Shown one piece after another: positions 4,569 through 59,071 of a DNA stretch of 64,000 nucleotides. The position numbers and the translations under genes are program-made. Location: positions 32,001 to 96,000 of the IMG/VR virus record IMGVR_UViG_3300044620_000592; one strand, 5' to 3'. The notes beneath the pieces were generated by a model. It was not told the origin of the DNA. It searched no databases and saw nothing but the letters and a program-made list of their open reading frames with translations. Positions within the stretch are counted from its first letter, which is position 1. The number at the start of each line of letters is the position of its first letter. Source of the stretch: a virus.

Positions 4569-4987
4569 TATTGTTCACCCAATTCAACAGATACATCGTA
4601 ATAAGAGCATGCAGATTTTATATCTCTTCTTACTAACTTTTCAGTATAAGAATTAACAAAGCAAGTGTATGTCTTGAAGTCGTCTGCGGGAGAGAGCTTT
4701 ATTGAAACCGTTACTGTTCCTCTTGTATTTGCGAGGGCTGACAGATAGTCTCGACCTCTTCTCCCATCAACCGTGTGGTCAGTATTATTTGGAAGATATG
4801 TAAAATCTAAACTAAATGTTCTTTTATTCTTTCTAATGTATCTTCTAATTTTTCCTCTTGAAAGTTCAACATCAGATCCGGCCTGCTCAACGGATGAGTT
4901 AAACTTGCGATTATGTTCTGTAATCTCTTGTCCATTAATTGACAATAGATGGATTAGACCTGTCTGCTGGTTTGGAATTGGTGCCAT
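4568..4987 (-). CDS. Distal tail (Dit)-like protein
   Basis: 139 aa immediately after TMP; KRTFSLDFTYLP..TVDGRRG motif. Confidence 0.6.
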   Translation of the reverse strand: MAPIPNQQTGLIHLLSINGQEITEHNRKFNSSVEQAGSDVELSRGKIRRYIRKNKRTFSLDFTYLPNNTDHTVDGRRGRDYLSALANTRGTVTVSIKLSPADDFKTYTCFVNSYTEKLVRRDIKSACSYYDVSVELGEQ

Positions 4988-18378: not shown

Positions 18379-19166
18379 TTTTTATTTTCTTTTTCTAAAA
18401 TTTCTAAGTCTGTTGATTTTTGTTTTTTTCTATAAAACAAATTTCTATCAGGGGCAATCAAAGAACCTTCTCCAAGTCCTGAAGCCTCTAAGAATCTACT
18501 ATAACTCTCATTACCCCAAACAATTCTCTTAAAAGAATCACGCCTAGTGATGGGAACAAGGTATTGCATCGGAGTTCCTGCGGGGATAGTGAATTCCTTA
18601 TCTGTGGTTATGTTCAACACAACATGTATGTGATGGTAATAATCTGTATGCACAACCCCAGGTACAACCGTGTAGTTAGGATTTGGCTCATGCAACATTG
18701 GCAATGCCATTAATGAAACACCTTTGTGAGTAATATAAAGCCAAGGGGAAACCAGTTTGGGGTATTGCGCCGTTGGTATTTTCTTCAGAGTTGAGAACGG
18801 ACATCCTTCAGAACTTTCATTATCAAATCCTTCAACTGCAAATCCCTTATCCCCATACCTAGACAGTTTTAACTCAAAACGCTTGCCATCAATTGCTGGC
18901 CTTACCGTAACATCTGTCCATAGGGGGATGACAATTCCATGAGTTATATAATCATACGTTCCTTGGCATCGTCTAATTGAACCTTTTTTCTTTGAAAGAT
19001 TTTTCCACCATGAGGGGAGCTGACTCCAAGGGAGGTATGGGGGCAGATGCATCAAACGATTATCAGTAGGAATGACAACAATCTCACCACGCTTGGGCTT
19101 AGGAATGTCTTTTTTATATTGAATAATTTTATATTTGTATTTGCCTGAGCGCCTCAGCATGATCAA
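18357..19166 (-). CDS. Hypothetical protein, DUF6065-like/beta-clip family often found with phage oxygenases
   Basis: PSWWK..IRRCQG..KLVSPW..PGVVHTDYY..IPAGTPMQYLVP motifs. Confidence 0.55.
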   Translation of the reverse strand: MIMLRRSGKYKYKIIQYKKDIPKPKRGEIVVIPTDNRLMHLPPYLPWSQLPSWWKNLSKKKGSIRRCQGTYDYITHGIVIPLWTDVTVRPAIDGKRFELKLSRYGDKGFAVEGFDNESSEGCPFSTLKKIPTAQYPKLVSPWLYITHKGVSLMALPMLHEPNPNYTVVPGVVHTDYYHHIHVVLNITTDKEFTIPAGTPMQYLVPITRRDSFKRIVWGNESYSRFLEASGLGEGSLIAPDRNLFYRKKQKSTDLEILEKENKKWNFFKK

Positions 19167-20589
19167 CCTTTGCTTGTGATGTTTGGTCTAGTTTAATATC
19201 AGAAATCAATTTATGAACATATTCTTCTGTTCCGTATGCTTTTATCATTTCTCTAGCCTTTTTTGCTGAGAGCAGTTTTTGACCTTGAGCGACATGGTAA
19301 AAATGAGGAACCAAAAACATTTCATAATTGACCGATGGGATATCATACAAGAAAGGAGGTCTCTCTTGCCATAGTTCTAAAAGATTTGTTAAATACCCTG
19401 GCTTCTTCATTAACTTTTGCTGTCTCCACATTGGGGTATCATCTCTATCTGAGATGTAATGAAGGGATATCATTGCCAATATATTTTCCATCATCATATT
19501 CATCTTATTGTTATAATCTTCTTCTATCTTCTTAGAGCCGTGATTATAAGTACTCAAGTTATGCATTAAGTATCTTGCTTGTTGGATTGTTGAGCCAATA
19601 GATGTTGCCTCAATAGGTTCAACAAAAGCAGCAGCAAGACCTACTGCTACGCAATTCTTTGACCAGAATTTCTTCAAGTGACCAGGATCAAATTTAAAAC
19701 TTCTTTTTGGTTCAACTTCACGACCTAAAAGTTCAGACACTTCTCTAACTGCTTGATCATCGGTGCAGTGATTTGAAGAATAGATATATCCATTACCCCT
19801 TCTGTCTTGAGTTGGTATTTCAAAGACCCATCCATTGGCTATTGCTCTTGCCCTTGTGTATGGTCTAATCTGACCGGAAGGGTCACTTTCAGTTGGGAAA
19901 GCTATTGCAGAATCCATTTGTAGATAATCTTTATAAGAAACCCATTCGGTATTGCCAATCTCTGACATCAGAGTTCTTTTAAAGCCTGTAGCGTCAATCC
20001 AGAAATCAGACTCAAAAGCCTCAAGATTATCTAGAACAACAGAATCGATATATCCACTTTCTGGATTTAAATTAACCTTAATCACTTCTGCGTCAATTAT
20101 TTTAATATTTCTAATAACGCACAATTCAGATAAATAATTATTCAAAGCAAAAGTATCAAAATGGAATTGATTTACTGATTGATGAGGATGGTTTGCATTT
20201 ATTTTATTTTCAATAATTCCTCTAGAGATCATATTTTCAGTCAGAGTTTTTCCGTCTTGGATCAATCCGTTATAGGCAGCATAATATCCAACAGGCTCAT
20301 GAACTTCAGTCCTTGAAACACTGTGGATATAGTCAGGGGTATGATTAGTCCAGTTCTCAAAACGAATACCGTATTTATGAGTAGCTCGCGATTTAACAAT
20401 CATCTCTCCAAGCGGAATATCGCAAATGTCCATAAACATGCGCCAGTGCTCAGTTGAGCCTTCGCCAACCCCAACTATGCCAATTTTAGAAGAAGATATC
20501 ATATTTATCTCCCTAAATGGGAATGCTTTTCTTAACATTAATGCAGTAACAAGCCCAGCCGTTCCGCTACCTACAATTGTTATTTTCAC
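19129..20589 (-). CDS. Flavin-dependent halogenase (tryptophan halogenase family)
   Basis: GSGTAG FAD motif, GVGEGS, catalytic-Lys region ATHKYGIRF, WVFEIP (WxWxIP variant), FVEPIEATSI. Confidence 0.9.
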   Translation of the reverse strand: MKITIVGSGTAGLVTALMLRKAFPFREINMISSSKIGIVGVGEGSTEHWRMFMDICDIPLGEMIVKSRATHKYGIRFENWTNHTPDYIHSVSRTEVHEPVGYYAAYNGLIQDGKTLTENMISRGIIENKINANHPHQSVNQFHFDTFALNNYLSELCVIRNIKIIDAEVIKVNLNPESGYIDSVVLDNLEAFESDFWIDATGFKRTLMSEIGNTEWVSYKDYLQMDSAIAFPTESDPSGQIRPYTRARAIANGWVFEIPTQDRRGNGYIYSSNHCTDDQAVREVSELLGREVEPKRSFKFDPGHLKKFWSKNCVAVGLAAAFVEPIEATSIGSTIQQARYLMHNLSTYNHGSKKIEEDYNNKMNMMMENILAMISLHYISDRDDTPMWRQQKLMKKPGYLTNLLELWQERPPFLYDIPSVNYEMFLVPHFYHVAQGQKLLSAKKAREMIKAYGTEEYVHKLISDIKLDQTSQAKVDHAEALRQIQI

Positions 20590-44240: not shown

Positions 44241-44926
44241 GTTTGATTGAAAAGTCTTTGGCTGTTGATAGCAAAGTATTTGAAACATGGGAAGATGCTG
44301 ACAAATTTTGTGTATCTAAAATTTTTAGATTTTCAGAGCAGTGTGGTAATGCTTCTTTGTCACAGTGTATTGAACTTGTTGTAAATTCATCCACTATTTC
44401 TAATAACAACATATTTGCTTATATGACATTTAGAACAGATAATGAAATTGACTTCCTTAAAAGCATTATTGATCAATACCTAGAATCAGGGCTTGAAATG
44501 CTTGAGCCAAATTCTTTTAGCAGTCATGAAGAGTTGCAAACTGTTATTGAAGCACATCAAGCGATGTTTCTTCTCATGGCTCATAGCGCTATCAAGCTTT
44601 TTGACCAGCTTCAGAATGATGAAAGATACAAATCTTTTATAAATGTATTTCTCTCAGAAACAATGATTGCAGAAACTGTTGCAAAAAAACAGCGTGATTA
44701 TGGCCCAAACAATGTTTCAAAATTTGGAGTTTCCGGATTAGTTGTAAGAATTCACGATAAAATTGCAAGACTCGATAATCTCCTTTCTTCATCTAGGAAA
44801 GGACAGAACTCTGTAAAGAACGAAACTGTCTTTGATACATTGCTTGACATTGTTGGCTATTCAACGGTTGCTCTGCTTTGGGTTAATGGCTGGTTTCTCA
44901 CACCTATGAGTATTGATAAGCCATGA
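44237..44926 (+). CDS. DUF1599/nucleotide-modification-associated domain protein
   Basis: KKQRDYG..GLVVRIHDKIARL..DTLLDIVGYS. Confidence 0.7.
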   Translation: MSLIEKSLAVDSKVFETWEDADKFCVSKIFRFSEQCGNASLSQCIELVVNSSTISNNNIFAYMTFRTDNEIDFLKSIIDQYLESGLEMLEPNSFSSHEELQTVIEAHQAMFLLMAHSAIKLFDQLQNDERYKSFINVFLSETMIAETVAKKQRDYGPNNVSKFGVSGLVVRIHDKIARLDNLLSSSRKGQNSVKNETVFDTLLDIVGYSTVALLWVNGWFLTPMSIDKP

Positions 44927-45528
44927 CAACAATTGTTGGAATACAGGGTGATGGGTATTCACTGATTTGTACAGACTCAAGAGTTTCTTCATTTGATGAG
45001 GGAGGCATGGCCTACCAGATTACGACTCTTGGAACTGGAACATCAAAAGTTGCACAAAACGGTAGATACCTACTTGGAGCTGCTGGTGATGTTAGAGCTA
45101 TCAATATTCTTCATCATGTATTTATTCCACCAGCGCCTCCTTTTTCAGAAGGTGGTGTAAAACTAGATCATTTTATTACTCAGAAGTTTATTCCACAGCT
45201 TAGGAACTGTTTTGAAAATACTGGATATGCAATGCCAGATAATGACGCTAAAGATCATATTGCAGAACATTCATCTCAAATTCTTGTAGTTGTAAATGGT
45301 ACTATATATATTATTGATGGAGACTATTCTTGGACTTCGGACAAGACTGGAATCTATGCAATAGGAACTGGCTCATCGTATGCGCTTGGGGCATTATATG
45401 CATTGTCAAATGGAAAAGAAATGACAATGCCAAAAGCCAAAGTAGCAATTAATAAAGCTTTATCAATCGCTTCTAAATTTGATCCGTATACAGGGGCTCC
45501 GTTCCAAACTTTTATACAGGAGCAATAA
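44923..45528 (+). CDS. HslV/proteasome-subunit-like Ntn hydrolase
   Basis: N-terminal MTTIVGIQG, DSR, GAAGD, AIGTGSSYALGAL. Confidence 0.8.
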   Translation: MTTIVGIQGDGYSLICTDSRVSSFDEGGMAYQITTLGTGTSKVAQNGRYLLGAAGDVRAINILHHVFIPPAPPFSEGGVKLDHFITQKFIPQLRNCFENTGYAMPDNDAKDHIAEHSSQILVVVNGTIYIIDGDYSWTSDKTGIYAIGTGSSYALGALYALSNGKEMTMPKAKVAINKALSIASKFDPYTGAPFQTFIQEQ

Positions 45529-47981: not shown

Positions 47982-48053
47982 TCGGAGATTGTGTAATTGG
48001 CAGCACAAATGGTTTTGGTCCATTTAGTCAGGGTTCGAGTCCTTGTCTCCGAA
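47982..48053 (+). tRNA. tRNA-Gln (UUG)
   Basis: Acceptor TCGGAGA/TCTCCGA, anticodon arm AATGG-TTTTGGT-CCATT, T-loop GGTTCGAGTCC; no encoded CCA. Confidence 0.9.
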
Positions 48054-48055
48054 CT

Positions 48056-48268
48056 ATGGAAAATAAAAAACAAACAACTTCAGTTACAACCATTCTACTG
48101 GTTGTATTTGTAGTATTAAAGTTAACCAATAATATTGACTGGTCATGGTGGTGGGTATTGTCCCCCATCTGGATTCCAATTGCCTTTATTGCAGTAATTG
48201 CAATATCCATTGGGATTCTAATGGCTTTGTTTGGGAGTAGGGAAGTTCATGAGTCTAACGGTAATTGA
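48056..48268 (+). CDS. Small membrane protein (WSWWWVLSPIW family)
   Basis: Two hydrophobic helices around LKLT..IDWSWWWVLSP. Confidence 0.7.
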   Translation: MENKKQTTSVTTILLVVFVVLKLTNNIDWSWWWVLSPIWIPIAFIAVIAISIGILMALFGSREVHESNGN

Positions 48269-48821
48269 AGATTTCATCCTCAAAGATAAACAAGACGAGC
48301 TTGAGGCTTATGTAAAGGACTCAAAGTTCCCTTACCGCTTTCATAAGATTCATAACTATGGGGCTGGAGGCGCAGCTTGGGGAGAAGATCTCCAACTGAC
48401 CCATCATCTGATGATGTATGGGGAACATGACGTATCTCCACACTTCCCTATCATTGCTCCGTTGTATGACACCCTTACAAAATTGTATGGCAGTATCACC
48501 TTCTTCAGAGCGAAGGTCAACTGTACCTTCCCTAGCGTCACAATGTCTCCATATGCCCCTCAGGAGCCCCATGTCGATTTAAAATACGAGGATGGTCGTT
48601 CTGTTCCACACCTCGTATGTTTGTATTATATAAATAATGCGGATGGCCCGACATATTTTTATGACGGGAATGGTAGAATTACACATAAGATTGAACCCGA
48701 TAAGGGAACGGCGGTGATTTTTGATGGTAGTATTATGCATGCGGGCAGCAATCCGGTTAACTTCCCTTATCGATTCGCTTTTAACATTAATTTTAGGCAA
48801 GGTACAAGCGAAAAGCTTTGA
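48249..48821 (+). CDS. 2OG-Fe(II) oxygenase
   Basis: Start MSLTVIEDF; PHVD..LYYINNADGPT..FDGSIMHAG..RFAFNINF. Confidence 0.8.
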   Translation: MSLTVIEDFILKDKQDELEAYVKDSKFPYRFHKIHNYGAGGAAWGEDLQLTHHLMMYGEHDVSPHFPIIAPLYDTLTKLYGSITFFRAKVNCTFPSVTMSPYAPQEPHVDLKYEDGRSVPHLVCLYYINNADGPTYFYDGNGRITHKIEPDKGTAVIFDGSIMHAGSNPVNFPYRFAFNINFRQGTSEKL

Positions 48822-49096: not shown

Positions 49097-49489
49097 ATGT
49101 TAAATATTATTAAGAAACTAAACAAACTCATTTCCAAGAGTAAAAAAATTGAAGTTGAGACTCCTTCTGTGTTCTCTAATGAGAAATACGAAGAGATTCA
49201 AGCATTTGTATATAGAGACCTCGATCTAATCAAGAAGAAAGCTGCATACGCAGCATATATTCAGAATCTCCCCGAACCTTTATCTGCTGAAGCCCAAGAA
49301 AAGATTAGACTCCGCAAGATTGAGCTCTCTCAAACAGTCGATAAGATGATTAGAGCCCATAAACCCGCACTTGACAAGCTTGCGAAGTCTGAGACACCCA
49401 AGAGAATCGAAATCAATCTTCCTGAGTATGTTTTGGAAATCGACCAATCCCCGATTCCCCGACATCCCCGAACCCCCAAATCATTGTGA
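49097..49489 (+). CDS. Hypothetical protein
   Basis: 130 aa with upstream AAGAAAG. Confidence 0.5.
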   Translation: MLNIIKKLNKLISKSKKIEVETPSVFSNEKYEEIQAFVYRDLDLIKKKAAYAAYIQNLPEPLSAEAQEKIRLRKIELSQTVDKMIRAHKPALDKLAKSETPKRIEINLPEYVLEIDQSPIPRHPRTPKSL

Positions 49490-49789
49490 GACGAATATTC
49501 TTCAAAAATTTAATAAAAATTTTTGATGGCAAACTCCCAATCCGATATTATCGAAAATTTTAGTATATATCGATGCAATGCTATGCATGCTTTCAGCTGC
49601 GAACATCCGGGGACTGTTCGCAGGGTCAATGGTTAGGGGATACCCCTAGGGGTATAGGGGATCATTTTTTATGCACTCCCGTGCATAATCATTCACCGAA
49701 ACCCTTTATTTACAAGGGTGCGCCACCCCTAATGCATGCCCTAATGAATGACTTGCGAAGGGGGGGCGGGGGCGTGTAACCTTTCAGGT

Positions 49790-50284
49790 ATGGCAACTAA
49801 GTCAGTCCCAACCAAGAGCAAGGCGCGCGTCGTGCGCTCTGCCACCCCTACCGTTACCAAGAGCGCCGTACTAGCGCATTTGGCAACCGCCCGCACAGCG
49901 AACAAGGCGAAAGGCGTGAAAGCCTTTTACACGGGAGCGCAAGCCGATTCCCTCGCCTCTGCCGTTGCCCGTGCCCACAAGTTCCCCACACTCACCGAGG
50001 CGGGTCTTGTGGTCAAGGGTGCAAGCGTTCCCAAGACCGCCCAAGACGGGGCAGACCGCCGAGCCTTTGCCCGTGCGAACCGTGCCACCCTTGTCAATGT
50101 CTCCGACATTCTTGGCGAGAGCAAGAACGGGGAAATTACCCATGACCGCCCTGAGAACACCGTGCGTGTTCGCTTGGCAAGTATCGCCAAGGCTCTTGGC
50201 TTGCCAGCGGACACCTACTACGCCGTAAGGGCGGAGGCATACGCCGAGGGCGAGACCCCAAAGGTCTACATCCTCCGCAAATAG
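49790..50284 (+). CDS. Basic Ala/Lys/Arg-rich early protein, DRPEN family (cassette)
   Basis: Start re-called at MATKSVP after TTGCGA-18-TAACCT-7; GC-rich; terminator at 50303-50334. Confidence 0.7.
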   Translation: MATKSVPTKSKARVVRSATPTVTKSAVLAHLATARTANKAKGVKAFYTGAQADSLASAVARAHKFPTLTEAGLVVKGASVPKTAQDGADRRAFARANRATLVNVSDILGESKNGEITHDRPENTVRVRLASIAKALGLPADTYYAVRAEAYAEGETPKVYILRK

Positions 50285-50369
50285 CGGAGGGTGAACCCTC
50301 ACGGGGGCGAGAGTCGCAAGGCTCTCGCCCCTTTCCCCTTTTATGGGGAGTGCTGCAAAACTCCAGGAC

Positions 50370-50383
50370 CGAACGTCTGTTCG
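50370..50383. promoter_or_regulatory. LexA (SOS/Cheo) box, Gram-positive/actinobacterial type
   Basis: CGAAC-GTCT-GTTCG matches CGAAC-N4-GTTCG. Confidence 0.55.
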
Positions 50384-50601
50384 CCCGGCGCGCGGGAGGA
50401 GCTTCGCACTTTGATCCCGTGTTAGTGTAACTTTAGACAGGGCGTGTAATTTTAGTACAAAAATCTTTATGCCCGTGTAATATTACAGCTGATACCTTTA
50501 TGGAAACTGTGTAACATTACACACTGTGTAACTCTAGGTATCCGTGTAATATTAGCTCCAGGAAGTTTATGAAAAAGATCCGTGTAATCTTAGAAATAGT
50601 G

Positions 50602-50630
50602 TTGTATTCCTCTTAGTAATCCTGTAAGGT
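50602..50630 (+). promoter_or_regulatory. Sigma70-type leaderless promoter (representative of cassette promoters)
   Basis: TTGTAT-17-TAAGGT-6-ATG; similar at 52551 (TTGCAT-17-TATCCT), 53027 (TTGTTC..TAGGAT), 53638 (TTGACG-17-TACAGT). Confidence 0.65.
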
Positions 50631-50636
50631 AACACT

Positions 50637-50852
50637 ATGAATAATTTCACGATAAGCATTAAAGAGACCGCCAAGACGATGGAGTTCACCATCACATTCG
50701 AGGAGCCTTATCGCACAGACGATAAGTTTGCCGCGAATGGTGCGCGTGTTCGTATTTGGGACTTCATTCAGAGGAACCGTATCCAGTACAGCCGACACAC
50801 TAAGACCAAGCGTGTTGATGACTACTCATTCACAATGGGTATTTGGAAGTAG
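50637..50852 (+). CDS. Small hypothetical protein (cassette)
   Basis: 71 aa; own promoter; terminator 50865-50895. Confidence 0.65.
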   Translation: MNNFTISIKETAKTMEFTITFEEPYRTDDKFAANGARVRIWDFIQRNRIQYSRHTKTKRVDDYSFTMGIWK

Positions 50853-51333
50853 GGGGATACACACAGGGAGGGGGCCGCTTGGCCCCCTTCTTTTTGTCTC
50901 CAGCTTCGTGTAACATTACAACCCTGTGTAACATTACAGAACTACCTAGTAGTGCAGGTAGGTGTAACATTACAAAACTCTCAAATTGTAGTATGCGCTA
51001 CAAATCGTGTGTGTAACATTACACAAGGTACCTTTATGGGATTGCTCACGCGGGTGGAGCTCCCCAGTTTCACGTAGGAGACGCACCCGCGAGAGAATAA
51101 GGTAGTTTCTACCATAATTGAGTATGAAATTGTAATCGGGCTTGTAATATTACAAGTCTTTCCGTTATTCAATTCCCTACTACATTCGCTAGGTAAAGTC
51201 AAGTCATTATGGGCATTTTCCCAGCTGGATTTTTTCTAGATTATTTTCCCTAAATGCGTAACTTTACACAGTTTGTCGGGTAGTATTTTCTTGTTGGCAA
51301 TTCCGCCAACTTGTCCCGAAAGGTAGTGCCGAA

Positions 51334-51744
51334 ATGTCTAAGCGTCATCAAGCACAATGGAAGAAGCGCAAGGCTTCTTATCTCAAGCAAATAGCCGAAG
51401 CCAATAAGGTGAACGCTAGTCGGGGAGTAAAGCAATTTTACTTTTCCGATGACCTAATCAACCTCATCGTTGATGCCGATTTTGCGCCAGTTATGCCAGT
51501 TGATATGTTGGGTCGTTCATTCGTTCAGGGTGAGGCTAGGCGTTCATTCTGTATTGAAATTGACGCTATGCCAGTTGAGGTTGAGAACGCTACCCGAAAG
51601 GCTACGACCGACCGACCCGAAAATGCAGTTCGGGCTAATCTGTTGAGTTTCATGAAACTCATCGGAAAGAATGAGTATTACGCCATTCGGGGAGAGTCGT
51701 ACCGTGAGGGTGAGATTCCGCCAGTTTGGGTTGTTCGGGTCTAG
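51334..51744 (+). CDS. Basic early protein, DRPEN family paralog (cassette)
   Basis: DRPENAVRANL..YYAIRGESYREGEIPPVWVVR; SD GAAAGG; terminator 51761-51786. Confidence 0.7.
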   Translation: MSKRHQAQWKKRKASYLKQIAEANKVNASRGVKQFYFSDDLINLIVDADFAPVMPVDMLGRSFVQGEARRSFCIEIDAMPVEVENATRKATTDRPENAVRANLLSFMKLIGKNEYYAIRGESYREGEIPPVWVVRV

Positions 51745-51760
51745 TCCCCGAACACTTACG

Positions 51761-51786
51761 GAAGCCCCCCGAAAGGGGGGCTTTTT
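51761..51786 (+). terminator. Intrinsic terminator
   Basis: aagcccccc-gaaa-ggggggctt then T-run. Confidence 0.8.
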
Positions 51787-51996
51787 CGTTTCCCCAAAAA
51801 AGGCCGGTACCTTGTAAAGTTACACCCAGTGTAATATTACAAAAAGAACCTTTATGTGGAGTGTGTAATTTTACGAGAAATAACTTTATGGAAGGCTAAA
51901 ACTTTTTTCGTGTAATATTTGGGAAATGCTTGCAATTGCTTTTCCAGCTGGTAGTATTTCTAATACAAGGCAATAGCCCATAGAGAAAGATAAGAA

Positions 51997-52287
51997 ATGA
52001 AAGTTCAAGAATTACAGACACCAAATCTTGTAGAGTTGGTAATGCCATATGAGATGTATAGATTTCTTCTTTACTGCATGGCTACCTATGAAAATCCAAA
52101 AGACACCGACATGAAGCAGGTCTACAAGAATTGCTGGGAGTTTGCAGAGTCTCTCGGTGCAGAGTCACCCCATCACTTCATTTCAGAGAATGATGGTTTC
52201 ATGAAACTTTACCACCACCAGCTGGTAGTGCTTAGAGGACAGGCAGAAGCACAAGCCGAAAAGGTTGCAAAGGTAATCAAAAAGTAG
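51997..52287 (+). CDS. Hypothetical protein (cassette)
   Basis: 96 aa; promoter TTGCAA-16-TAGTAT; hairpin ggtagagag-gaaa-ctctctacc downstream. Confidence 0.65.
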   Translation: MKVQELQTPNLVELVMPYEMYRFLLYCMATYENPKDTDMKQVYKNCWEFAESLGAESPHHFISENDGFMKLYHHQLVVLRGQAEAQAEKVAKVIKK

Positions 52288-52586
52288 TAGGGAAGGTAGA
52301 GAGGAAACTCTCTACCGGCCTGCAATTGTGTAATATTACAAACCTGTGTAATATTACATGCCGTTGCTTTATGGCGGGCAGGTGTAATGCCTTGTTTTAT
52401 CAAACATTACACCTGCTGTAACATTACACGAAGCTGGATGAAATAGAGTGTGTAATTTAAGACTGTGTAACTTTATGGGATCGTGTAACATTAGCCAATT
52501 GCATTATGGAACTAATCCAAAAAATATTTCCTGGAATATTAGAAATTGACTTGCATAGCTTGTGTAATATTTGTATCCTTACAGGT

Positions 52587-52832
52587 ATGAGTTACACACA
52601 ACTTTCACGCCCATACCGCCTAGAGTTCAAGCCCCGTATGCAGACAATTTTTGCTCGCATGATTGTCTGTAACAATTGCCGACCTGCTGGCGAGAAATTG
52701 CTGGCTGGTCATATGTTCTTCGGCGCTCTCAGCGTCAAGCACCTTGACCGCTTCGCAGATGTCAAGTGCGACTTCTGCGAGAACGAAATCTGCAAGGAGC
52801 CTGCTCCCTGCAAGTGCCACCGCTGCAAATAG
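52587..52832 (+). CDS. Cys-rich Zn-finger-like small protein (cassette)
   Basis: Leaderless start MSYTQLSRP; CNNC, CDFC, CKEPAPCKCHRC. Confidence 0.65.
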   Translation: MSYTQLSRPYRLEFKPRMQTIFARMIVCNNCRPAGEKLLAGHMFFGALSVKHLDRFADVKCDFCENEICKEPAPCKCHRCK

Positions 52833-53061
52833 CGGGGCTAAAGTTACAGGGAGTGCCCTCCCTCCCTGTAACACTTCCAGGGCCATGTAATGTTACACAC
52901 CAGTTGTAATATTACGCGAAGCTGGATAGATTTGAGTGTGTAAGTTTACACACCGGGTAAGGTCTGATCGTGTAACATTAGCCCCCGGGCTTTATGGAAA
53001 TTTTTTCTGTAACATTAGAAATAGAGTTGTTCTTTGTGTTTGGTTCTGTTAGGATTTCCTC

Positions 53062-53403
53062 ATGACCTACTCACCTAAGCCCTATCAGACCACTTCTGCG
53101 CTTCAAGCCGACCACAAGTATTTCCGTACTTTGGTCATGCTTGGAGACATTACTATCTCATCAGAAGGCATCATAGATATGACCGTCAATGATGCACCTA
53201 CTAGCATCTACTCTTTCCTTCATAATGAGGTAGAAGAAAAGTTGTTCAATGTCTATGACACTTACTGCCTTGGCGGTTATGAAGATGAGACACTCGCAAT
53301 GATTCAGCGCAAAGAATTAAAGATGTCAATGGTTGAGTTTTACACTCGCCAAATCCGTTACGCAATGGATGAGATTTATGACGAACTAGTGAAGAGGGGG
53401 TAG
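53062..53403 (+). CDS. Hypothetical protein (cassette)
   Basis: 113 aa; leaderless TAGGAT-6-ATG. Confidence 0.65.
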   Translation: MTYSPKPYQTTSALQADHKYFRTLVMLGDITISSEGIIDMTVNDAPTSIYSFLHNEVEEKLFNVYDTYCLGGYEDETLAMIQRKELKMSMVEFYTRQIRYAMDEIYDELVKRG

Positions 53404-53673
53404 AATTACACGGAGAGTCCCCTAGTATTACACTAGGGGATTTCTCCCCCGGCTTTGTGTAACATTACATACCTAATCTTACAGGCGGGCGTAAGTCGCT
53501 TCACCACAGCTATTACGCCCGCAGTAATATTACACGGAGCTGGATGGATTTGAGTGTGTAAGTTAAGATCGTGTAACTTTATGTAGTTGTATTATGCAAT
53601 CTATTAAAAAATATCTTTGTGTAATATTTGGAAATGCTTGACGGAGCTAATGTTACACATTACAGTGGTACAC

Positions 53674-53889
53674 ATGAAGTCAGCGATAGCAACCGAAAAG
53701 TTACACAAAATCTGCACCGACAGCACCAACTGCCAGTGCCCTATTATTACAGAGGACAAGGCTTGTTCTATTGTTACACTCATTAACGAGTTTGTAACTG
53801 AAACAAATCCCGTAGCAATTACCTTTGACAAGGCAGAAGATTACGACAAGTTCCTCGCTTATATTACACTAGCAAGTTTGAGGGGGTGA
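53674..53889 (+). CDS. Small Cys-containing protein (cassette)
   Basis: Leaderless start MKSAIATEK. Confidence 0.6.
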   Translation: MKSAIATEKLHKICTDSTNCQCPIITEDKACSIVTLINEFVTETNPVAITFDKAEDYDKFLAYITLASLRG

Positions 53890-53897
53890 AAAATTAC

Positions 53898-54041
53898 ATG
53901 AGTACAGATGAAATCGTTTTGTTCTTTTCCGTCTTTGGATTCCTTTGCGGATATGGCACTTGCGCCTTTGGAAATGCATTGGCTAAAGCTACACCGGTCA
54001 AAAATTACAGACCTTACGACTGGGCGATAGACGGGGAGTAA
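53898..54041 (+). CDS. Small membrane peptide (47 aa, not in ORF track)
   Basis: MSTDEIVLFFSVFGFLCGYG..PYDWAIDGE*. Confidence 0.55.
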   Translation: MSTDEIVLFFSVFGFLCGYGTCAFGNALAKATPVKNYRPYDWAIDGE

Positions 54042-54247
54042 AATTACAGATCTCCCAAAAGTTACACGGTTCCTAATGTTACAGGGGCCGTGTTTCTTTT
54101 TGTCCCGGAACTGTAATATTACGCACCTTGTAATATTACATAGATGTCCGGAAAATGCAGTAGATAATTGTTTGCTGTAATATTAGGAAATGGTTGTTTT
54201 GGCCTTGGCTATTTGGTAGTGTTTCATTTATGAAAGGAGGTAGTCAT

Positions 54248-54373
54248 ATGAAGCTTGCAGTGCTTTACCCGAACGGGTACAAGTCTCCAATTTCGGAGGA
54301 GCAGGTCGCGAAGCACGGGCTGCGAGTAGGAATGCTCACACCGTTCACGCGCTTGCCAATCGTGGAACTCTAG
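54248..54373 (+). CDS. Small protein (41 aa, not in ORF track; cassette)
   Basis: Strong SD AAAGGAGG; MKLAVLYPNGYKSP..LPIVEL*; promoter TTGTTT-17-TAGTGT; hairpin after. Confidence 0.65.
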   Translation: MKLAVLYPNGYKSPISEEQVAKHGLRVGMLTPFTRLPIVEL

Positions 54374-54744
54374 AGTTACACGGTGAGAACGGGGAGGGTC
54401 GAATGACCCTCCCCTATTCTTACAGAGCACTGTGTAACATTACAAGGGCGGGCGTAAGGTTCACACTCTTGTAACCTTACGCCCGCGTGTAAGATTACAC
54501 CATGCGAGTAGATTTTAGTATGTGATTGTAATATTACATAGCCTGGCTTTATGGCGTGTAATTTTAGAACTGATCGTGTAACTTTAGGTAAGCTATGTAA
54601 CATTAGATAAAACTCTGTAACTTTACCTGTAACAATAGGAAATAGCCTATCTGTTCACTTACTGTTCACCTAGATTCCACCTTCTGTTTACCTTGGGCTG
54701 TTATCTTGGTAAATGTCAAGGGGAAGCACCTCCGAGACACCAAA

Positions 54745-54760
54745 TGTTTCACGTGAAACA
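54745..54760. promoter_or_regulatory. parS-like site (perfect consensus palindrome)
   Basis: TGTTTCACGTGAAACA, extended palindrome 54743-54762. Confidence 0.75.
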
Positions 54761-54785
54761 TTGGTCAAGCCGAAAGGTAGTCATA

Positions 54786-55082
54786 ATGGAATTCGAGTTT
54801 ATCGATGAGAACGAAATCGAGGCAGTACGCCGAGGTCGTAAGTCAAATGTCTCAGCCGAACTGGTTGAAGCATTCCGCACAATGCCCAAGGGCAAGGCAG
54901 TCAAGGTCAAGGGTCTCAGCGTAGACCCGAAGTCGGAAGACTTCAAGAATGACAAGGCTACCGCCTCCGCTACCATCCGTACCGCAGGTCGCTTGGCAGG
55001 CGTGAAGGTCTCCATCTCATGGAGCCCCGAAGGTATCCCTCAGGTGACCACCAAGGTCGCCAAGGCTGCAAAAGTCAAGTAG
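54786..55082 (+). CDS. Small basic protein, FEFI-RGRK family paralog 1
   Basis: Start re-called at MEFEFIDENEIEAVRRGRKS after SD GAAAGG. Confidence 0.75.
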   Translation: MEFEFIDENEIEAVRRGRKSNVSAELVEAFRTMPKGKAVKVKGLSVDPKSEDFKNDKATASATIRTAGRLAGVKVSISWSPEGIPQVTTKVAKAAKVK

Positions 55083-55121
55083 CCCAAGTTCGCTTGGAGG
55101 GGTCGGGACACCCCTCCAAGC

Positions 55122-55215
55122 ACAGGGGCTGAAGTAGGTGCATGGTGCATGGGGAGACCCCATGACAGCGGTTAGGATGTTTCCGCCATGAAACACACTT
55201 ACCTCAGTCCCCTGT
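55122..55215 (+). ncRNA. Candidate structured RNA element
   Basis: Outer helix acaggggctgaagtaggtg / cacttacctcagtcccctgt enclosing two inner hairpins. Confidence 0.35.
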
Positions 55216-55696
55216 CCCCCCAGGATCTGTGTAATATTACAGACTGTGTAATATTACGAGCGGGTGTAATTTTACTTACCTGTGAAAATTACACCCGTGC
55301 AAATTGTGTAATATTACAGGGTATTTTTAGTGTGCGTTTGTAATATTACAGTACCCCTGGAGCTACGCTCGATCGTGTAACTTTAGAAGCTGTGTAACAT
55401 TAGCCGTGTAACTTTATGCGCGTGTAATACTAGACCGATCGTGTAACATTAGAAGCTTGCACACTACAACCAACTTTTTTAATTATTTGGGTTGTTGGTG
55501 AGGAAATGCGAAATATGGCGATATCGTTCTACTTGTCAGATTGACACTCGGTTAGGTTCGGGGTTAGGCGGGGCGCAAGCCCCTAGCAATTTCCCCCCCT
55601 AATGGTTCTGATAGACATGAGTGATGGATAGTAAGTAACACTATCGTTCCGAAAGTTACACTCGTACAATTTATTACACGAAAGGCAGTAACCATT

Positions 55697-55993
55697 ATGG
55701 ACTTTGAGTTCATTGACGAAAACGAGATTGAGAGCGTTAAGCGTGGTCGCAAGTCCAACGCTAGCCCCGAACTCGTAAAGGCACTATCAGAGGTTCCAGC
55801 AGGCAAGGTTGTAAAAATTACAGCAATGTCAGTTGACCCAGCCTCTGAGGACTTTAAGAACGACAAGGCAACAATGTCGGCAAGCATTCGCACGGCTGGC
55901 AAGTTGGCAGGCGTAAAGGTTTCCATTTCATGGAGTCCAGCAGGCGTTCCACAAGTCAAAGTGTCTAAGCCTAAGGCTAAGGCTGGCAAGTAA
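55697..55993 (+). CDS. Small basic protein, FEFI-RGRK family paralog 2
   Basis: MDFEFIDENEIESVKRGRKS..DFKNDKAT..IRTAGKLAGVKVSISWSP. Confidence 0.8.
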   Translation: MDFEFIDENEIESVKRGRKSNASPELVKALSEVPAGKVVKITAMSVDPASEDFKNDKATMSASIRTAGKLAGVKVSISWSPAGVPQVKVSKPKAKAGK

Positions 55994-56020
55994 TCGCTGG
56001 GTCTAATTGACCTACCGATA

Positions 56021-56059
56021 GGAACAACCCCCGTGAGTGTTCTTCACGGGGGTTGTTCT
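56021..56059 (+). terminator. Terminator hairpin
   Basis: gaacaacccccgtga / tcacgggggttgttc. Confidence 0.65.
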
Positions 56060-56465
56060 GCGTACCCATGAAAGTCCGGCCGGAGGAAGATCTATTATTA
56101 CACGACACCTAATATTACAGAGGTTCTATTATTACACCGGATCTAAAATTACAGAGCTCCAGGAATCCAGCTTGTGTAATATTACAGCCAGCACCTTTAT
56201 GTAATATTACATAGCTCGATGGGTGTAAGTTGATATCCCCCGTCAACTTACACCCATGTAATATTACAGAGAATTCTATTAGATTATAATATATATTATG
56301 AATTAGATTAAGCTTTATCTAATCTATAACTTTATGTAACCTTTATGTGTAACATTACACGCATCTTTATGTGGTGTAATGTTACAACCTGGTACAATAA
56401 AAAAACGGATCAGTTTCCTGACCCGTTTCTTTAACTTTTGGAATGAGTATTGTTTTATTTAATTC

Positions 56466-56819
56466 TTAAGCGATTTTCTTAAGAAATGGGACATTATTTA
56501 CATCCCAAATAATGCCAACTTTTGCCCAACCTGAAGCTTTTGCCTGAGAGCGAAGAATTGCTGAATTCTTTGCTTTGGCATTTTTCTTCTCTTCAAGTGT
56601 AACAATTTCGTTATCCAATGCGAACATTGGAACACGAACAGTTTGCCCAACTTTTGCTTTACTCAAAAAAGCAACCAATTCAGGAACAACATGAGCCTTA
56701 CGCCCACGCTTTACTGATTCAATTTCTTCTTCATTAATGAACTCAAATTGCATGTTCATTTCCTTCTCATTTTCTTCTGGATTTTCTTCAGGATTTCCTG
56801 AAGTATTTTTTGAAGCCAT
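56466..56819 (-). CDS. Small basic protein, FEFI-RGRK family paralog 3 (inverted cassette)
   Basis: MQFEFINEEEIESVKRGRKAHVVPEL; own promoter TTGTTG-17-TAAGGT on minus strand. Confidence 0.75.
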   Translation of the reverse strand: MASKNTSGNPEENPEENEKEMNMQFEFINEEEIESVKRGRKAHVVPELVAFLSKAKVGQTVRVPMFALDNEIVTLEEKKNAKAKNSAILRSQAKASGWAKVGIIWDVNNVPFLKKIA

Positions 56820-57254
56820 TTTCTTACTCTTTCTTTTATTTAATTAACTCATTCCTTGAGTCAATGTCCACCTTACCGCCTAAACGTAGCAACAACAACC
56901 TATCCAAAAAATTAACAATTAAAAACTTAATTACCGAGCTTATTCTTCATCCATTTTCCGATCTGTTGTTTTAGCAGCTAGCGGGGGTTGTGTAATATTA
57001 CGTTAGTGTAATATTACAAAATACTCAAATTATAGTGTGTAATATTACGTTGATCACCTTTATGGAGATCTAAAAGATTATCTAATTTATTATCTAATCT
57101 TTTATTGCCTGGTACCTTTATGGGAGCTCATTTAATTCCCCTAAAGAAACATTATTCCTAAGGTTGGTAATCTAATTATCAGACGGTAGGATATTTATAG
57201 GCTGACATTTAGCCGAAAAACCAAATCTATTTCCTAACGTGAAAGATAATCCAA

Positions 57255-57716
57255 ATGACCACCGAACCAATTGACGAAATGTTTATTGCAATCCATAGTC
57301 TTACATTATGTATTGAAGTAGAAATTACTACAACAGAACATTTCCTTAAAACTGAAATTGAATATTCAAAAATTAATGGATATCAAACACAGATCAATTT
57401 CCTAACCCGATTTAGCGAGATATTCGATAAAGTTATCTCTAAGCCTTTCTATGAGAAAGTCTTTATTCCAAATATGGAAGAAAAAATGGATGCCGATACA
57501 ATGGATTTCCTTTTTAGCTATAGCTATCTTAAGAATTTCTTTAAGGAATTCCATAAGGCTAACATTCTTCTAACAAAACACTTTAAGGATGCCTATACCC
57601 TAAGCGAAGTCAATAACGATATTCGTAACGCTTATCCAGGTATTGGTCATAATCCCGAACTCTTCCCTCATCAGGAACTAATTCAATATCTAGGTTCAAT
57701 GGGTAAAGGGAAGTAA
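57255..57716 (+). CDS. Hypothetical protein (cassette)
   Basis: 153 aa; promoter TTGGTA..TAGGAT upstream. Confidence 0.65.
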   Translation: MTTEPIDEMFIAIHSLTLCIEVEITTTEHFLKTEIEYSKINGYQTQINFLTRFSEIFDKVISKPFYEKVFIPNMEEKMDADTMDFLFSYSYLKNFFKEFHKANILLTKHFKDAYTLSEVNNDIRNAYPGIGHNPELFPHQELIQYLGSMGKGK

Positions 57717-57721
57717 AAACA

Positions 57722-58207
57722 ATGTCAAACTTTGAAACAATATTCAATAATCCAGAAAAAGCAATGGCTATCATTTTTCATATGACTAATAGCCATGAAA
57801 TAGCTGCTCAAACCATTACCGATATTCATAAAGGTATTCTTAAGGCAACTGAAATTGTTAACCAAACTTCTAACTTTCTCGAAAAGTTAAATTTTATGAA
57901 GATTCCTCAGACAATGATTGATAATCTTGAAAAGGCTAATAATGCACGTGATTCTTTTGCTAATATCCTAGAGAATCTAAAAGCTGAAAGGATAGATTAT
58001 GATAAATACATCATGGAAATCTATTCCTTAACTCTTGAGCTTTGCATAATTGGTCAACAAATTACTGCTGTTTTTGGTAATACTGATGAATTCGGAATTG
58101 ACCATTTATTTCCTAATCGTGAATCTTTCTTCAAAGAGATATACGATCTATTTACCGAGCTTTCATTTCAGTCAAAAGACGTAGTTCAAGAATACGCTAG
58201 TCTTTAG
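57722..58207 (+). CDS. Hypothetical helical protein
   Basis: 161 aa; terminator ggggcagg-tttt-cctgcccc-TTTTTT at 58225-58250. Confidence 0.65.
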   Translation: MSNFETIFNNPEKAMAIIFHMTNSHEIAAQTITDIHKGILKATEIVNQTSNFLEKLNFMKIPQTMIDNLEKANNARDSFANILENLKAERIDYDKYIMEIYSLTLELCIIGQQITAVFGNTDEFGIDHLFPNRESFFKEIYDLFTELSFQSKDVVQEYASL

Positions 58208-58951
58208 CCAATTCTTTAGAGAAAGGGGCAGGTTTTCCTGCCCCTTTTTTCATGCCTGCAATCATGTGTAACATTACACCAATTGTAATATTACAGGAAC
58301 CCTGCTGGAATAGAGTGTGTAATATTACACCGCTATTCTTTATGGAAATCAAATCCAAATACTAATGTTTATCCAAATCCTAACATCCGGCCAACTTTAT
58401 GGCGGGCAATAGGCTTACCTAATATGGGATCTAAAGTCCGGGTCTATTCAGAACCTAATTAACTACCTATAGATAGGTATTACATCATTGTAATTCCCAT
58501 ATTTAGCACCTCAAAACGCACACTAAAATTCTCACAAATAAAAACGACGTTATTTATGAGTATTTTACTGTCTTTTTGATTGATTTAATAGACAATTAGT
58601 CTATTTATTACTTATTTTATAACATTTATCTATCTTTATGGGGGGTACAAATAACCGAAATTATGGCTATTGGGGGGTTTATATAGATATATATCCCTAT
58701 AGATAGGAGAATACATAGATAGGTCTACACCAGTTTATTAATAAGATCTGTACCTTTATTTAGAACGCTTTACAGCATCATTAATAGATTTGGACCCTTC
58801 TGAGAATCTATTCCTTGGTACTTCGCTGAATACCTTAAAGGAATCTATTCATCTATCTATATCTTATCCCTATGAATACTTCTATCTATACTTCTTCTAG
58901 AGGTATATCTTAGTTATAACCCGGAAATCAGGGTTTATTCGTAGAATACTT

Positions 58952-59062
58952 CTACTCCGATTCGCAATCATGACCGTAATACCATTCATTAGCCTCTTCT
59001 TCATCCAATAGATCAAACAATCTATCGCATTCCGGGCATTCCATCTTTGTTTTAACCTTCAT
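58952..59062 (-). CDS. Small Zn-finger peptide (36 aa, not in ORF track)
   Basis: MKVKTKMECPECDRLFDLLDEEEANEWYYGHDCESE*. Confidence 0.65.
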   Translation of the reverse strand: MKVKTKMECPECDRLFDLLDEEEANEWYYGHDCESE

Positions 59063-59071
59063 ATCTTTTCC

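Follow-up and report, generated by a model that had tools for sequence, protein, structure and literature searches.

The cassette array

The phage is an uncultured one from lake water, with actinobacteria as its host group. Positions given here are those of the window, the whole stretch of 64,000 nucleotides that was analysed, from a genome of 105,669 bp. On the plus strand at 49790..58400 lies an array of 14 small ORFs and 12 spacers with a coding share of 51%. Each of the tiny genes (about 14) has its own predicted promoter and its own terminator, and the spacers between them are packed with one 12-base palindrome, the 12-bp dyad TGTAAYATTACA, which we call the box. The exact sequence gives 44 strand matches, equivalent to 28 distinct positions, all between 50476 and 58329, where shuffled sequences give a mean of 0.04, and a scan of the entire genome found no exact copy outside the array. 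Allowing up to two mismatches raises the number in the array to about 55, with five to six scattered elsewhere. All 28 exact and 57 loose boxes are inside the 12 spacers and none is inside the 14 ORFs, with distances between boxes clustering at 16-19 bp and 30-39 bp. The cassette array with conserved palindromic spacers that was put forward in a preliminary description of this DNA is thus real; its estimate of about 28 perfect or near-perfect 12-mers agrees with the exact count, the only sites elsewhere being the few loose ones, and all eight of the box pairs that it listed are present at the positions it gave.

The GC content of the cassettes ranges from 0.31 to 0.61, against 0.38 for the genome. 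The first gene, F2a (49790..50284, plus strand as are all genes but one, 164 aa, GC 0.61), is a paralog of F2b (51334..51744, 136 aa), and its homologs come first in the array in most relatives. F2a has no Pfam or PHROG match, and the AF2 model of F2b (pLDDT 87.5) gave no significant fold match. Between the two is an ORFan of 71 aa (50637..50852) that looks leaderless, as its -10 sits 6 nt before the ATG. The gene at 51997..52287 (96 aa) is conserved in the related genomes G002 and G003 and appears to be missing from some lake contigs (joint 51874>52471). It is followed by a Cys-rich ORFan (52587..52832, 81 aa, GC 0.52) and a leaderless-like ORFan (53062..53403, 113 aa), neither found among the relatives fetched, and by a pair of small ORFs of 71 and 47 aa (53674..54041) in which TTACA half-sites are unusually numerous on the plus strand. 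The last cassette (57255..58207, GC 0.31-0.33) has two genes, of 153 and 161 aa.

The F1 family has paralogs A (54786..55082, 98 aa, GC 0.55) and B (55697..55993, 98 aa, GC 0.49) on the plus strand and C (56466..56819, 117 aa, GC 0.36) on the minus strand. Paralog B falls with more than 100 metagenomic clusters, every one hypothetical, and its AF2 model (pLDDT 83) had no fold match. The F1 and F2 models also had no match among DNA-binding folds (best Z 5.7 and 4.7), and the F1 and F2 sequences do not visibly track box type across lineages. The inverted cassette and the recurring paralogs had been reported before and both are confirmed, but the suggestion that the inversion fits shuffling is not supported, as every relative has the inverted copy and keeps the 98-aa paralog as two direct copies and one inverted one, a conserved architecture.

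Composition of the spacers

The spacers tend to follow one order: a terminator comes first, then two boxes 16-19 bp apart, in many cases a box-hairpin-box module, then box-N8-CTTTATGG, degenerate boxes and a promoter. CTTTATGG is strand-specific and lies 8 bp past a box. CTTTATG occurs 19 times on the plus strand of the array and once on the minus strand, without enrichment elsewhere, and in 11 spacer copies it is exactly 8 bp downstream of a box. The other elements previously listed, AGCTGGA..AGTGTGTAA, GATCGTGTAAC and a promoter-proximal TGTAA box, likewise recur (families D2, D10 and D16), and the terminators described in the spacers are reflected in 18 terminator-like hairpins in the array against 9.2 expected. 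Scanning for the strict sigma-70 consensus of E. coli gave 13 hits against 25 expected, which is no enrichment, but the promoter predicted to close each spacer is sigma-A-like and often leaderless, and modules accepted on the geometry TTGnnn-N16/17-TAnnnT, rather than on the strict consensus, are present at six cassettes with a degenerate box and GGAAAT in front. In the five box-hairpin-box modules the flanking boxes pair with each other and the folding z lies between -4.8 and -8.6.

All of the spacers described here are read on the plus strand except spacer 10, to which we give no strand. Spacer 1 (50285..50636) has two exact and five loose boxes, two copies of CTTTATG and a promoter-proximal box at 50583. 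Spacer 2 (50853..51333) has a terminator, the pair 50909/50927 among five exact boxes, and box-N8-CTTTATGG at 51012, while spacer 3 (51745..51996) has a terminator, the pair 51813/51830, two copies of box-N8-CTTTATG and a promoter module at 51911. A conserved 72-nt segment of family D2 is found in spacer 4 (52288..52586), together with the pair 52329/52347 and a box-hairpin-box at 52347-52428 (z -4.9); in spacer 5 (52833..53061), with the pair 52886/52905, a GATC-type box, CTTTATGG and a promoter module at 53008; and in spacer 6 (53404..53673), with a box-hairpin-box at 53458-53534 (z -4.8) and a promoter module at 53620. Spacer 8 (54374..54785) comprises a terminator, a box-hairpin-box at 54433-54499 (z -7.3), box-N8-CTTTATGG at 54527, five degenerate boxes and a promoter module at 54628. 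Spacer 9 (55083..55696) has the pair 55230/55247, a box-hairpin-box (z -6.2) and nine loose boxes. Spacer 10 (55994..56465), which separates the convergent paralogs B and C of F1, has five exact boxes, four copies of CTTTATG, four right-half-site boxes at an exact 17-bp period (56091-56153) and a box-hairpin-box at 56200-56268 (z -8.6). Spacer 11 (56820..57254) has boxes at 56991, 57007 and 57038 and two copies of CTTTATGG, and spacer 12 (58208..58400), at the distal end of the array, has a terminator, CTTTATGG and boxes at 58267, 58284 and 58318, a terminal triple with which the arrays of relatives likewise close.

Related phages and a second locus

About 15 related contigs of lake phages keep the spacer grammar at a protein identity of only 35-70%. 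The box itself varies by lineage, being TGTAAYATTACA, TGTAAGNTTAC, TCTAACGTTAGA or YTTAACGTTAAR, with distant relatives having another palindrome such as TCTAACGTTAGA, but the lineages do not differ in position, spacing, CTTTATG or promoter geometry. Box type differs even between L047 and L015, despite about 82% identity in aligned DNA.

Exact boxes outside the arrays are found only at G001:79412, G006:12849 and G007:37257, all in one orthologous intergenic spacer about 20 kb from the array, and the same spacer in G010, G002 and the present genome has near-boxes matching their own lineage. This second locus, with a box that matches the lineage in each case, points to a putative lineage-specific trans-acting binder. 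The protein-binding lattice that was one of the two functions first proposed for the spacers is a favoured reading on sequence comparison, since the box changes with the lineage on a constant architecture and the second locus changes with it.

Gain, loss and exchange of cassettes

All three of the array indels mapped between close relatives are flanked by box-cluster direct repeats, of 25 bp (G002 10997-11388), 83 bp (G003 12728-13480) and 71 bp (L015 6011-7027). G003 has the second gene of the 57255..58207 cassette and G002 lacks it, with an 83-bp box-cluster repeat on the two sides of the gap. A further case is the cassette at 54109..54538 (plus strand), consisting of a box pair, promoter, 41-aa gene (54248-54373), terminator, box-hairpin-box and box. 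This block of 430-432 bp is 95.6% identical to G002 against a background of about 77% between the two phages, and the G002 copy is in a different place, between paralogs A and B. It ends at boxes, and identity collapses beyond them. Skip joints, and one joint of inversion type, also fall at boxes in lake contigs, although the flanks are short and related phages are a possible source.

The earlier proposal that spacers are joints for gain, loss and exchange is thus upheld, and variable cassette content with breakpoints inside spacers, which it proposed to look for in related contigs, is seen at the three mapped indels. Comparison shows whole cassettes deleted, inserted and swapped, apparently by general homologous recombination between the control sequences of 25-85 bp that all spacers have in common. 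RecA and RuvC are both encoded in the genome.

Function of the spacers

We put at about one in two the probability that the spacers are co-regulated operator/promoter elements that double as homologous-recombination joints. The array would then hold the accessory genes of a lytic actinophage from lake water, in self-contained cassettes for host takeover or anti-defence; we infer the promoters, the timing and the early status of these genes alike. Each spacer would be a composite control element, with an intrinsic terminator as its first part, then 12-bp dyad operators in arrays with a period of about 17 bp, the invariant CTTTATGG, and, at a promoter of sigma-A type, a degenerate box adjoining GGAAAT and the -35. 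A dimeric, lineage-specific and probably phage-encoded protein would bind the boxes cooperatively and switch all of the cassette promoters together, along with the promoter of one distant operon with the same box, most likely for timed shut-off or activation. Any swapped cassette would remain correctly wired to the common control elements.

It is unlikely, though deserving of discussion, that the boxes and CTTTATGG are promoter parts read by host machinery or a host factor without a phage-specific binder. They could in that case resemble UP elements or be bound by a WhiB/sigma-A complex, by a host global regulator or by a nucleoid protein, and the lineage differences in the box would mirror different hosts. 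A degenerate box does adjoin the -35 at six cassettes, CTTTATG is invariant in all lineages, the phage encodes a WhiB, leaderless-type promoters suit an actinobacterial host, and cellular factors can use such sites, because isolated pairs of the same 12-mer occur in unrelated bacterial genomes. However the switch of box type between L047 and L015 argues against this, as does the lack of a phage-encoded sigma factor, and the majority of boxes, perfect dyads arranged in arrays, stand a long way upstream of any promoter or between convergent genes.

The box-hairpin-box modules fold as long stems, so some elements could work in RNA. That the elements act mainly in RNA, with two boxes around an inner hairpin giving long duplex stems in read-through transcripts, we consider decidedly unlikely. 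Such stems would part the cassette mRNAs by way of RNase III processing, stabilisation or antitermination, for which the separation of T7 early mRNAs is a model, and the five modules, with their z values and paired flanking boxes, do lie directly 3' of terminators. But the module is present in only about half of the spacers, a 12-mer dyad on its own could not give a useful hairpin in RNA, hairpins are missing between the boxes of pairs and of 17-bp-period runs, boxes also precede promoters and occur at the second locus, and there was no match to Rfam families.

A role of the box lattice in DNA handling rather than transcription is in our opinion very unlikely. The boxes could be origin iterons, partition or packaging sites, or bear a protective or compacting coat on the genome end that enters first. 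The periodicity of about 17 bp and the low coding density fit this, and contig depth over the array, about twice that of the flanks in one run, gives a weak hint that the array is a terminal repeat; the distant relatives in cluster BE1 of Streptomyces phages (portal 44% identical) have terminal repeats of about 11 kb (PMC5764925). In two other runs the depth ratio was however 1.2-1.6, the sites do not form one cluster but recur through 12 spacers, with promoters and terminators in a fixed register, and the second site precedes a distant operon.

Finally, dedicated site-specific recombination at the boxes, integron-like or attC-like with cassettes moving as circles, has in its favour that boxes coincide with cassette boundaries and that there is one inversion-type joint at palindromes, but is extremely improbable given that no integrase or resolvase is encoded (six-frame searches for tyrosine and serine recombinases, whose positive controls worked, found none, and neither did a Pfam sweep), that breakpoints are spread within 25-85-bp repeats and not at one fixed position, that no cassette lacks a promoter of its own, and that there were no circle-type joints in four runs. 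Of the two modes of shuffling offered in the preliminary description, the integron-like one is not sustained and the best reading of the sequences is a PeSL-like mode.

Comparison with known systems

The array motifs had no match in the literature within reach of our search. With regard to overall layout, SPO1 and T5 have host-takeover or pre-early gene modules in long terminal repeats, and these modules and those of BE1 resemble the array in having about a dozen small ORFan operons in one block, each with its own promoter and terminator. The array block may also lie in a terminal repeat, as hinted by depth, but we know of no box lattice or cassette-exchange grammar in those modules. Integron cassettes share ordered small accessory genes, imperfectly palindromic sites between them and variable content, but have IntI, attC sites of 57-141 bp rather than clustered 12-bp boxes, and one shared Pc in place of a promoter and terminator per cassette.

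Short inverted repeats at phage promoters are also known from Aca-repressed anti-CRISPR promoters, where a small phage regulator tunes early accessory genes from strong promoters, and from the phiC31 repressor, with its many near-identical intergenic copies of conserved inverted repeats. In contrast to both, the array has no linked HTH regulator, far more sites, periodicity, and CTTTATGG in the composite. The stoperators of Cluster A mycobacteriophages, which PMC4351075 discusses and which are bound by the immunity repressor (L5 gp71), are similar in being tens of copies of a short conserved intergenic site in an actinophage, with orientation bias of the flanks and a site sequence that varies by group (immunity groups there, lineages here). 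They are however asymmetric 13-mers across a whole temperate genome, whereas the boxes are dyads limited to one 8-kb array and one distant site, in a phage without integrase or recognisable repressor.

Cluster O mycobacteriophages have more than 30 copies of an invariant 17-bp dyad-symmetric repeat whose binder and function are undescribed (PMC4351075), and are like the present phage in being apparently lytic actinophages with invariant dyad repeats. Those repeats are genome-wide, with one third inside genes, unlinked to promoters and seldom at indels (PMC4351075), whereas the boxes lie between genes without exception, keep a register with promoters and terminators, and are present at every mapped indel (n=3).

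The closest working mode would be that of the PeSL (promoter-early stem-loop) elements, which T4-type phages carry as mobile regulatory cassettes (Arbiol et al. 2010, PMC2839356), with an operator layer added. Both have repeated composite promoter-plus-terminator motifs upstream of ORFans in a plastic region, and in both the indels of close relatives break in the motifs and motif recombination shuffles genes. They differ in that PeSL belong to T4-type myoviruses and the array to an actinobacterial siphovirus-like phage, and in that mini-circles were not seen for the array. Peculiar to the array are the 12-bp dyad boxes in periodic arrays, the invariant CTTTATGG, and a box sequence that is lineage-specific and marks a distant locus as well.

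Distribution of the box

The array of small-gene cassettes (window 49790-58400) consists of 14 ORFs and 12 spacers that carry the 12-bp dyad we refer to as the box. The box, TGTAAYATTACA, is present at 28 positions (chance expectation 0.04), all within window 50476-58329, and no further copy was found outside the array in the 105,669-bp genome, which bears out the proposal in the preliminary description of a 12-mer confined to the array; the eight box pairs listed there are also all present. With two mismatches allowed there are about 55 sites in the array, which is 51% coding, and exact and loose boxes alike are all in the 12 spacers, with none in the 14 ORFs. Box-to-box distances cluster at 16-19 bp and at about 32-35 bp. 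The core of the box is palindromic and its flanks are directional, GTGTAAYATTA being found 29 times on the plus strand and 4 times on the minus strand. CTTTATG has 19 copies in the array on the plus strand and 1 on the minus, and 11 copies are exactly 8 bp past a box. Longer recurring segments of the spacers, 24-72 nt in length, form families. No concentration of GATC was found in the array.

A 71-aa ORF of uncertain coding status (window 53674-53889) has four TTACA half-sites on the plus strand where about 0.35 are expected, and no homologue in the relatives. Where the array meets a long convergent minus-strand block there is a 670-bp non-coding stretch (window 58400-59071), with ATAGATAGG-type and AAATCC-type short repeats, another CTTTATGG, and 75% identity to the related contigs G002 and G003; it could be an origin or genome-end region.

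Organisation of the spacers

The common spacer order that had been claimed does recur. An intrinsic terminator is followed by a box pair, in about half of the spacers by a GC-rich inner hairpin between two boxes, then by a box, 8 bp and CTTTATGG, by degenerate boxes with the right half TTAG and often with GATC before them, and by a final degenerate box fused to GGAAAT, after which come TTGnnn, 16-17 bp, TAnnnT and the gene. There are 18 terminator-like hairpins in the array as against 9.2 expected, and these predicted terminators are located after cassette stops. The box-hairpin-box stems have folding z scores of -4.8 to -8.6, and all matches in an Rfam scan were under the gathering scores.

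The arrangement box-GGAAAT-TTGnnn-N16/17-TAnnnT is found six times, and every one of the cassettes comes with a promoter-like module and a predicted terminator. We treat the promoters as putative because a strict scan of the array with the sigma-70 consensus, which is that of E. coli, gave no enrichment. Three of the cassette genes start 6-7 nt past the -10 element, and thus look leaderless.

With regard to the element box-N8-CTTTATGG, the suggestion that CTTTATGG is the start of a mini-ORF gives inconsistent lengths. A promoter reading was also rejected, as the spacings do not fit a sigma-70, ECF sigma, single-subunit polymerase or leaderless promoter, TAnnnT is present in only about half of the copies, and the phage has no gene for an RNA polymerase or a sigma factor.

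Related phages have their own boxes

Neither megablast with the array nor tblastn with F1, a 98-aa family of cassette paralogues (A, window 54786-55082; B, 55697-55993; C, 56466-56819, inverted), gave a match among 50,697 phage records. A scan of IMG/VR with the box pair gave seven related contigs, and a scan with the F1 protein gave eleven more loci. In the seven contigs the boxes are clustered and CTTTATG is strand-specific. All relatives share a layout in which variable ORFan cassettes are followed by three F1 genes, two in direct and one in inverted orientation, and then by a terminal box cluster and convergent genes. The inverted cassette had been taken as a trace of shuffling, but the same inverted F1 copy is present in every relative and is thus part of a fixed architecture.

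The more distant members have another 12-bp palindrome and retain CTTTATG with its 8-bp offset, as well as the geometry of the promoters. The box is TCTAACGTTAGA in L050 and L051 (16 and 11 perfect copies respectively), YTTAACGTTAAR in L044, and TGTAAGNTTAC in L042 and L045-L049. In each related record the boxes are restricted to the array and one extra site.

At window 56091-56153 there are four boxes at an exact 17-bp period, in which the right half-site alone is conserved. The left halves of these four boxes, like the right halves (TTAG-type) of the boxes next to promoters, resemble the half-site of the TCTAACGTTAGA lineages. Two half-site flavours may exist, and with them two binders or heterodimers.

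Beyond the phages, our genome-contig scan gave isolated single pairs of the same 12-mer in unrelated bacteria only. These pairs, 16-20 bp apart in L029, L034, L035 and L036 (Xenorhabdus, Coriobacteriales and a gammaproteobacterium), are probably operators of cellular regulators. A search for the motifs in the searchable literature gave coincidental matches only.

A second box locus

The extra box sites in three relatives (G001:79412, G006:12849 and G007:37257) are all in one orthologous intergenic spacer, and in each case the site is the box of that lineage. Lineage-matched near-boxes are in the same spacer in G010, G002 and the studied genome (L026), where two hybrid boxes are on the minus strand at L026:4265-4673 (genome coordinates, outside the window). 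The spacer follows a distant F1-like gene (113-121 aa) and a gene of about 290 aa, which in L026 are a 113-aa F1 paralogue (L026:5561-5902) and a 284-aa gene, and it precedes an operon that encodes a protein with an F1-type N-terminus.

Two unlinked loci thus change box together, as a trans-acting binder that co-evolves with its sites would predict. We see this joint change as the strongest argument for a protein-binding role of the boxes.

None of the F1, F2 and F1-like proteins examined is supported by the data as the binder (the F2 paralogues F2a and F2b are at window 49790-50284 and 51334-51744). A further candidate would be a 98-aa weak-HTH ORF (genome 9597-9893). F1 and the F1-like protein are near-invariant across box types, so that if they do bind DNA it is more likely that they would read the invariant part of the spacers.

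The 130-aa protein encoded at L026:2973-3365 (minus strand) has an acidic FEFIDE-type N-terminal peptide as in F1 and is otherwise unrelated to it. Its counterparts in G001 and G006 have the same peptide, which may serve as a short docking motif for a common partner.

Cassette proteins

The array has ORFan cassettes, the content of which differs between relatives, and Pfam and PHROG scans of every cassette protein, of F1d and of the neighbours gave nothing above threshold. F1 is represented in more than 100 metagenomic clusters, every one hypothetical, and has an invariant RGRK motif. Foldseek gave no match at E<=0.001 for the models of F1 (pLDDT 83) or F2 (pLDDT 87.5), the best VIA Z scores, 5.7 for F1 (to RepE) and 4.7 for F2, were both inside the noise range, and the sole return from the ESM Atlas was an unnamed viral cluster with a score of 0.79. 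An AT-hook or Lsr2-like reading of RGRK is at best a lead, as there is no family match and the boxes of some lineages have a CG core.

The cassettes range in GC content from 0.31 to 0.61, and the F1 paralogues from 0.55 through 0.49 to 0.36. Nine of the 14 cassette ORFs, mostly the GC-richer ones, stop with TAG; low-GC ORFs stop with TAA.

Exchange of cassettes

The proposal that spacers act as PeSL-like joints, that is like the promoter-early stem-loop cassettes of T4-type phages, is supported, with breakpoints in the motifs for three of three indels and for one transferred block. Between the arrays of G002 and G003, which share about 91% identity, there are two cassette indels, each bounded by a box-containing direct repeat, of 25 bp and 83 bp. 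The third is a 1-kb two-gene cassette of L015 that is missing from G001; the repeat at its borders is 71 bp long and includes four boxes. In the case of the transferred block, window 54109-54538 has 95.6% identity to G002 against a background of 77%, and both ends are at boxes; it is before paralogue A in the studied phage and between A and B in G002. In contigs from other lakes there are joints at which cassettes are skipped, and one joint, at palindromes, between opposite strands, all with short flanks; no back-joining joints were seen in the assembled contigs of four runs.

The integron-like alternative is not supported. Integrons have the tyrosine recombinase IntI adjoining the array, and promoterless cassettes served by one common promoter. 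In contrast, six-frame searches in which the positive controls worked for 14 of 14 genomes found no tyrosine recombinase domain (PF00589), no serine recombinase or resolvase is encoded, and a promoter-like module and a predicted terminator accompany every cassette. Because these recombinases are absent and the phage encodes RecA and RuvC, the parsimonious mechanism would be homologous recombination between the repeated control sequences, which would move cassettes as described for PeSLs, and not site-specific exchange of the integron type.

Comparison with known systems

The stoperators of Cluster A mycobacteriophages are also among the nearest known systems. They belong to temperate phages that have an immunity repressor and genes for integration or partition, and are asymmetric sites in one orientation across early and late operons. 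The sites of the array, in contrast, are dyads within 8 kb plus one distant spacer, with only the flanks directional, and no integrase, and no repressor-type family in a Pfam sweep of 78 ORFs and about 30 others, was found. The array thus lacks the defining features of stoperators as it does those of integrons.

The other two nearest systems are the PeSLs (PMC2839356) and, in Cluster O mycobacteriophages, repeats of a 17-bp dyad (PMC4351075). PeSLs combine a terminating stem-loop with an early promoter that is sigma-70-like and AT-rich upstream, and are found before ORFans in a hyperplastic region, with indel or replacement breakpoints in the motifs and excised mini-circles (PMC2839356). The array resembles them in its terminator-like hairpins, ORFan cassettes, variable content and breakpoints in motifs, and differs from them in phage type. 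It goes beyond them in having a lineage-specific lattice of putative operators and a putative second regulated locus.

We suggest, with a probability of only about 0.15, that the array is an integrase-free cassette platform which freshwater actinophages of a large family have in common. A regulator that evolves together with its sites would use the lineage box as operator, and the box would double as a compatibility barcode, such that cassettes pass only between phages with the same box type and arrive pre-wired. The invariant part of the spacer would be read by architectural proteins, the F1 triple and the product of the F1-like gene next to the second locus.

If the more general reading holds, of co-regulated control spacers that are also recombination joints, there is a readable regulatory grammar for abundant uncultured lake actinophages, and any box-framed small gene becomes a candidate for a role in host takeover or anti-defence, so that metagenomes could be mined cheaply for such genes. 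The box variants and matching second-locus copies would then be a naturally occurring collection of operator specificities, of use in the search for a new DNA-binding family and perhaps as orthogonal parts. The PeSL idea, of regulatory repeats as recombination joints that move pre-wired genes, would extend past T4-type phages, with support here from the mapped breakpoints and one clear recent transfer.

The phage and its possible terminal repeat

The window is bases 32001-96000 of an IMG/VR virus record rated complete. The phage encodes portal, protease, major head protein, ribonucleotide reductase, Pol III alpha, DnaB, RecA, RuvC, C5-methylase, WhiB, ThyX, Dam and primase, and its portal shares 44% identity with the portals of Streptomyces siphoviruses in cluster BE. 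The tape-measure protein (window 4987-14190, minus strand; PhageMin_Tail and transglycosylase-like domain) is 3067 aa, which implies a very long tail. WhiB and the leaderless-looking promoters point to a low-GC freshwater actinobacterium as host. Array DNA is present in 19 lake-water metagenome runs, and there was no RNA run with array DNA among the sequencing runs listed. Unusual auxiliary genes are tryptophan-halogenase-like (window 19129-20589), proteasome-subunit-like (44923-45528), cytochrome P450 (45823-47058) and 2OG-Fe(II) oxygenase (48231-48821), the last directly upstream of the array and kept in relatives. There is a tRNA-Gln at window 47982-48054.

The takeover modules of SPO1 and T5 are blocks within a direct terminal repeat, and are hence present twice per virion genome. 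The array resembles them as many small operons, each with a promoter-like module and terminator. In Logan contigs of metagenome run X7 the k-mer depth is 17-19 inside window 49400-58850 as against 8-9 in both flanks, and in assembled contigs the ratio of array to flank depth is about 2 in X7 and 1.2-1.6 in runs X3 and X4. The cause could be a direct terminal repeat, about 9 kb long and collapsed, or the presence of two strains that share the array. Contigs of all four runs break near window 58850-58980, and BE1 relatives have terminal repeats of about 11 kb (PMC5764925).
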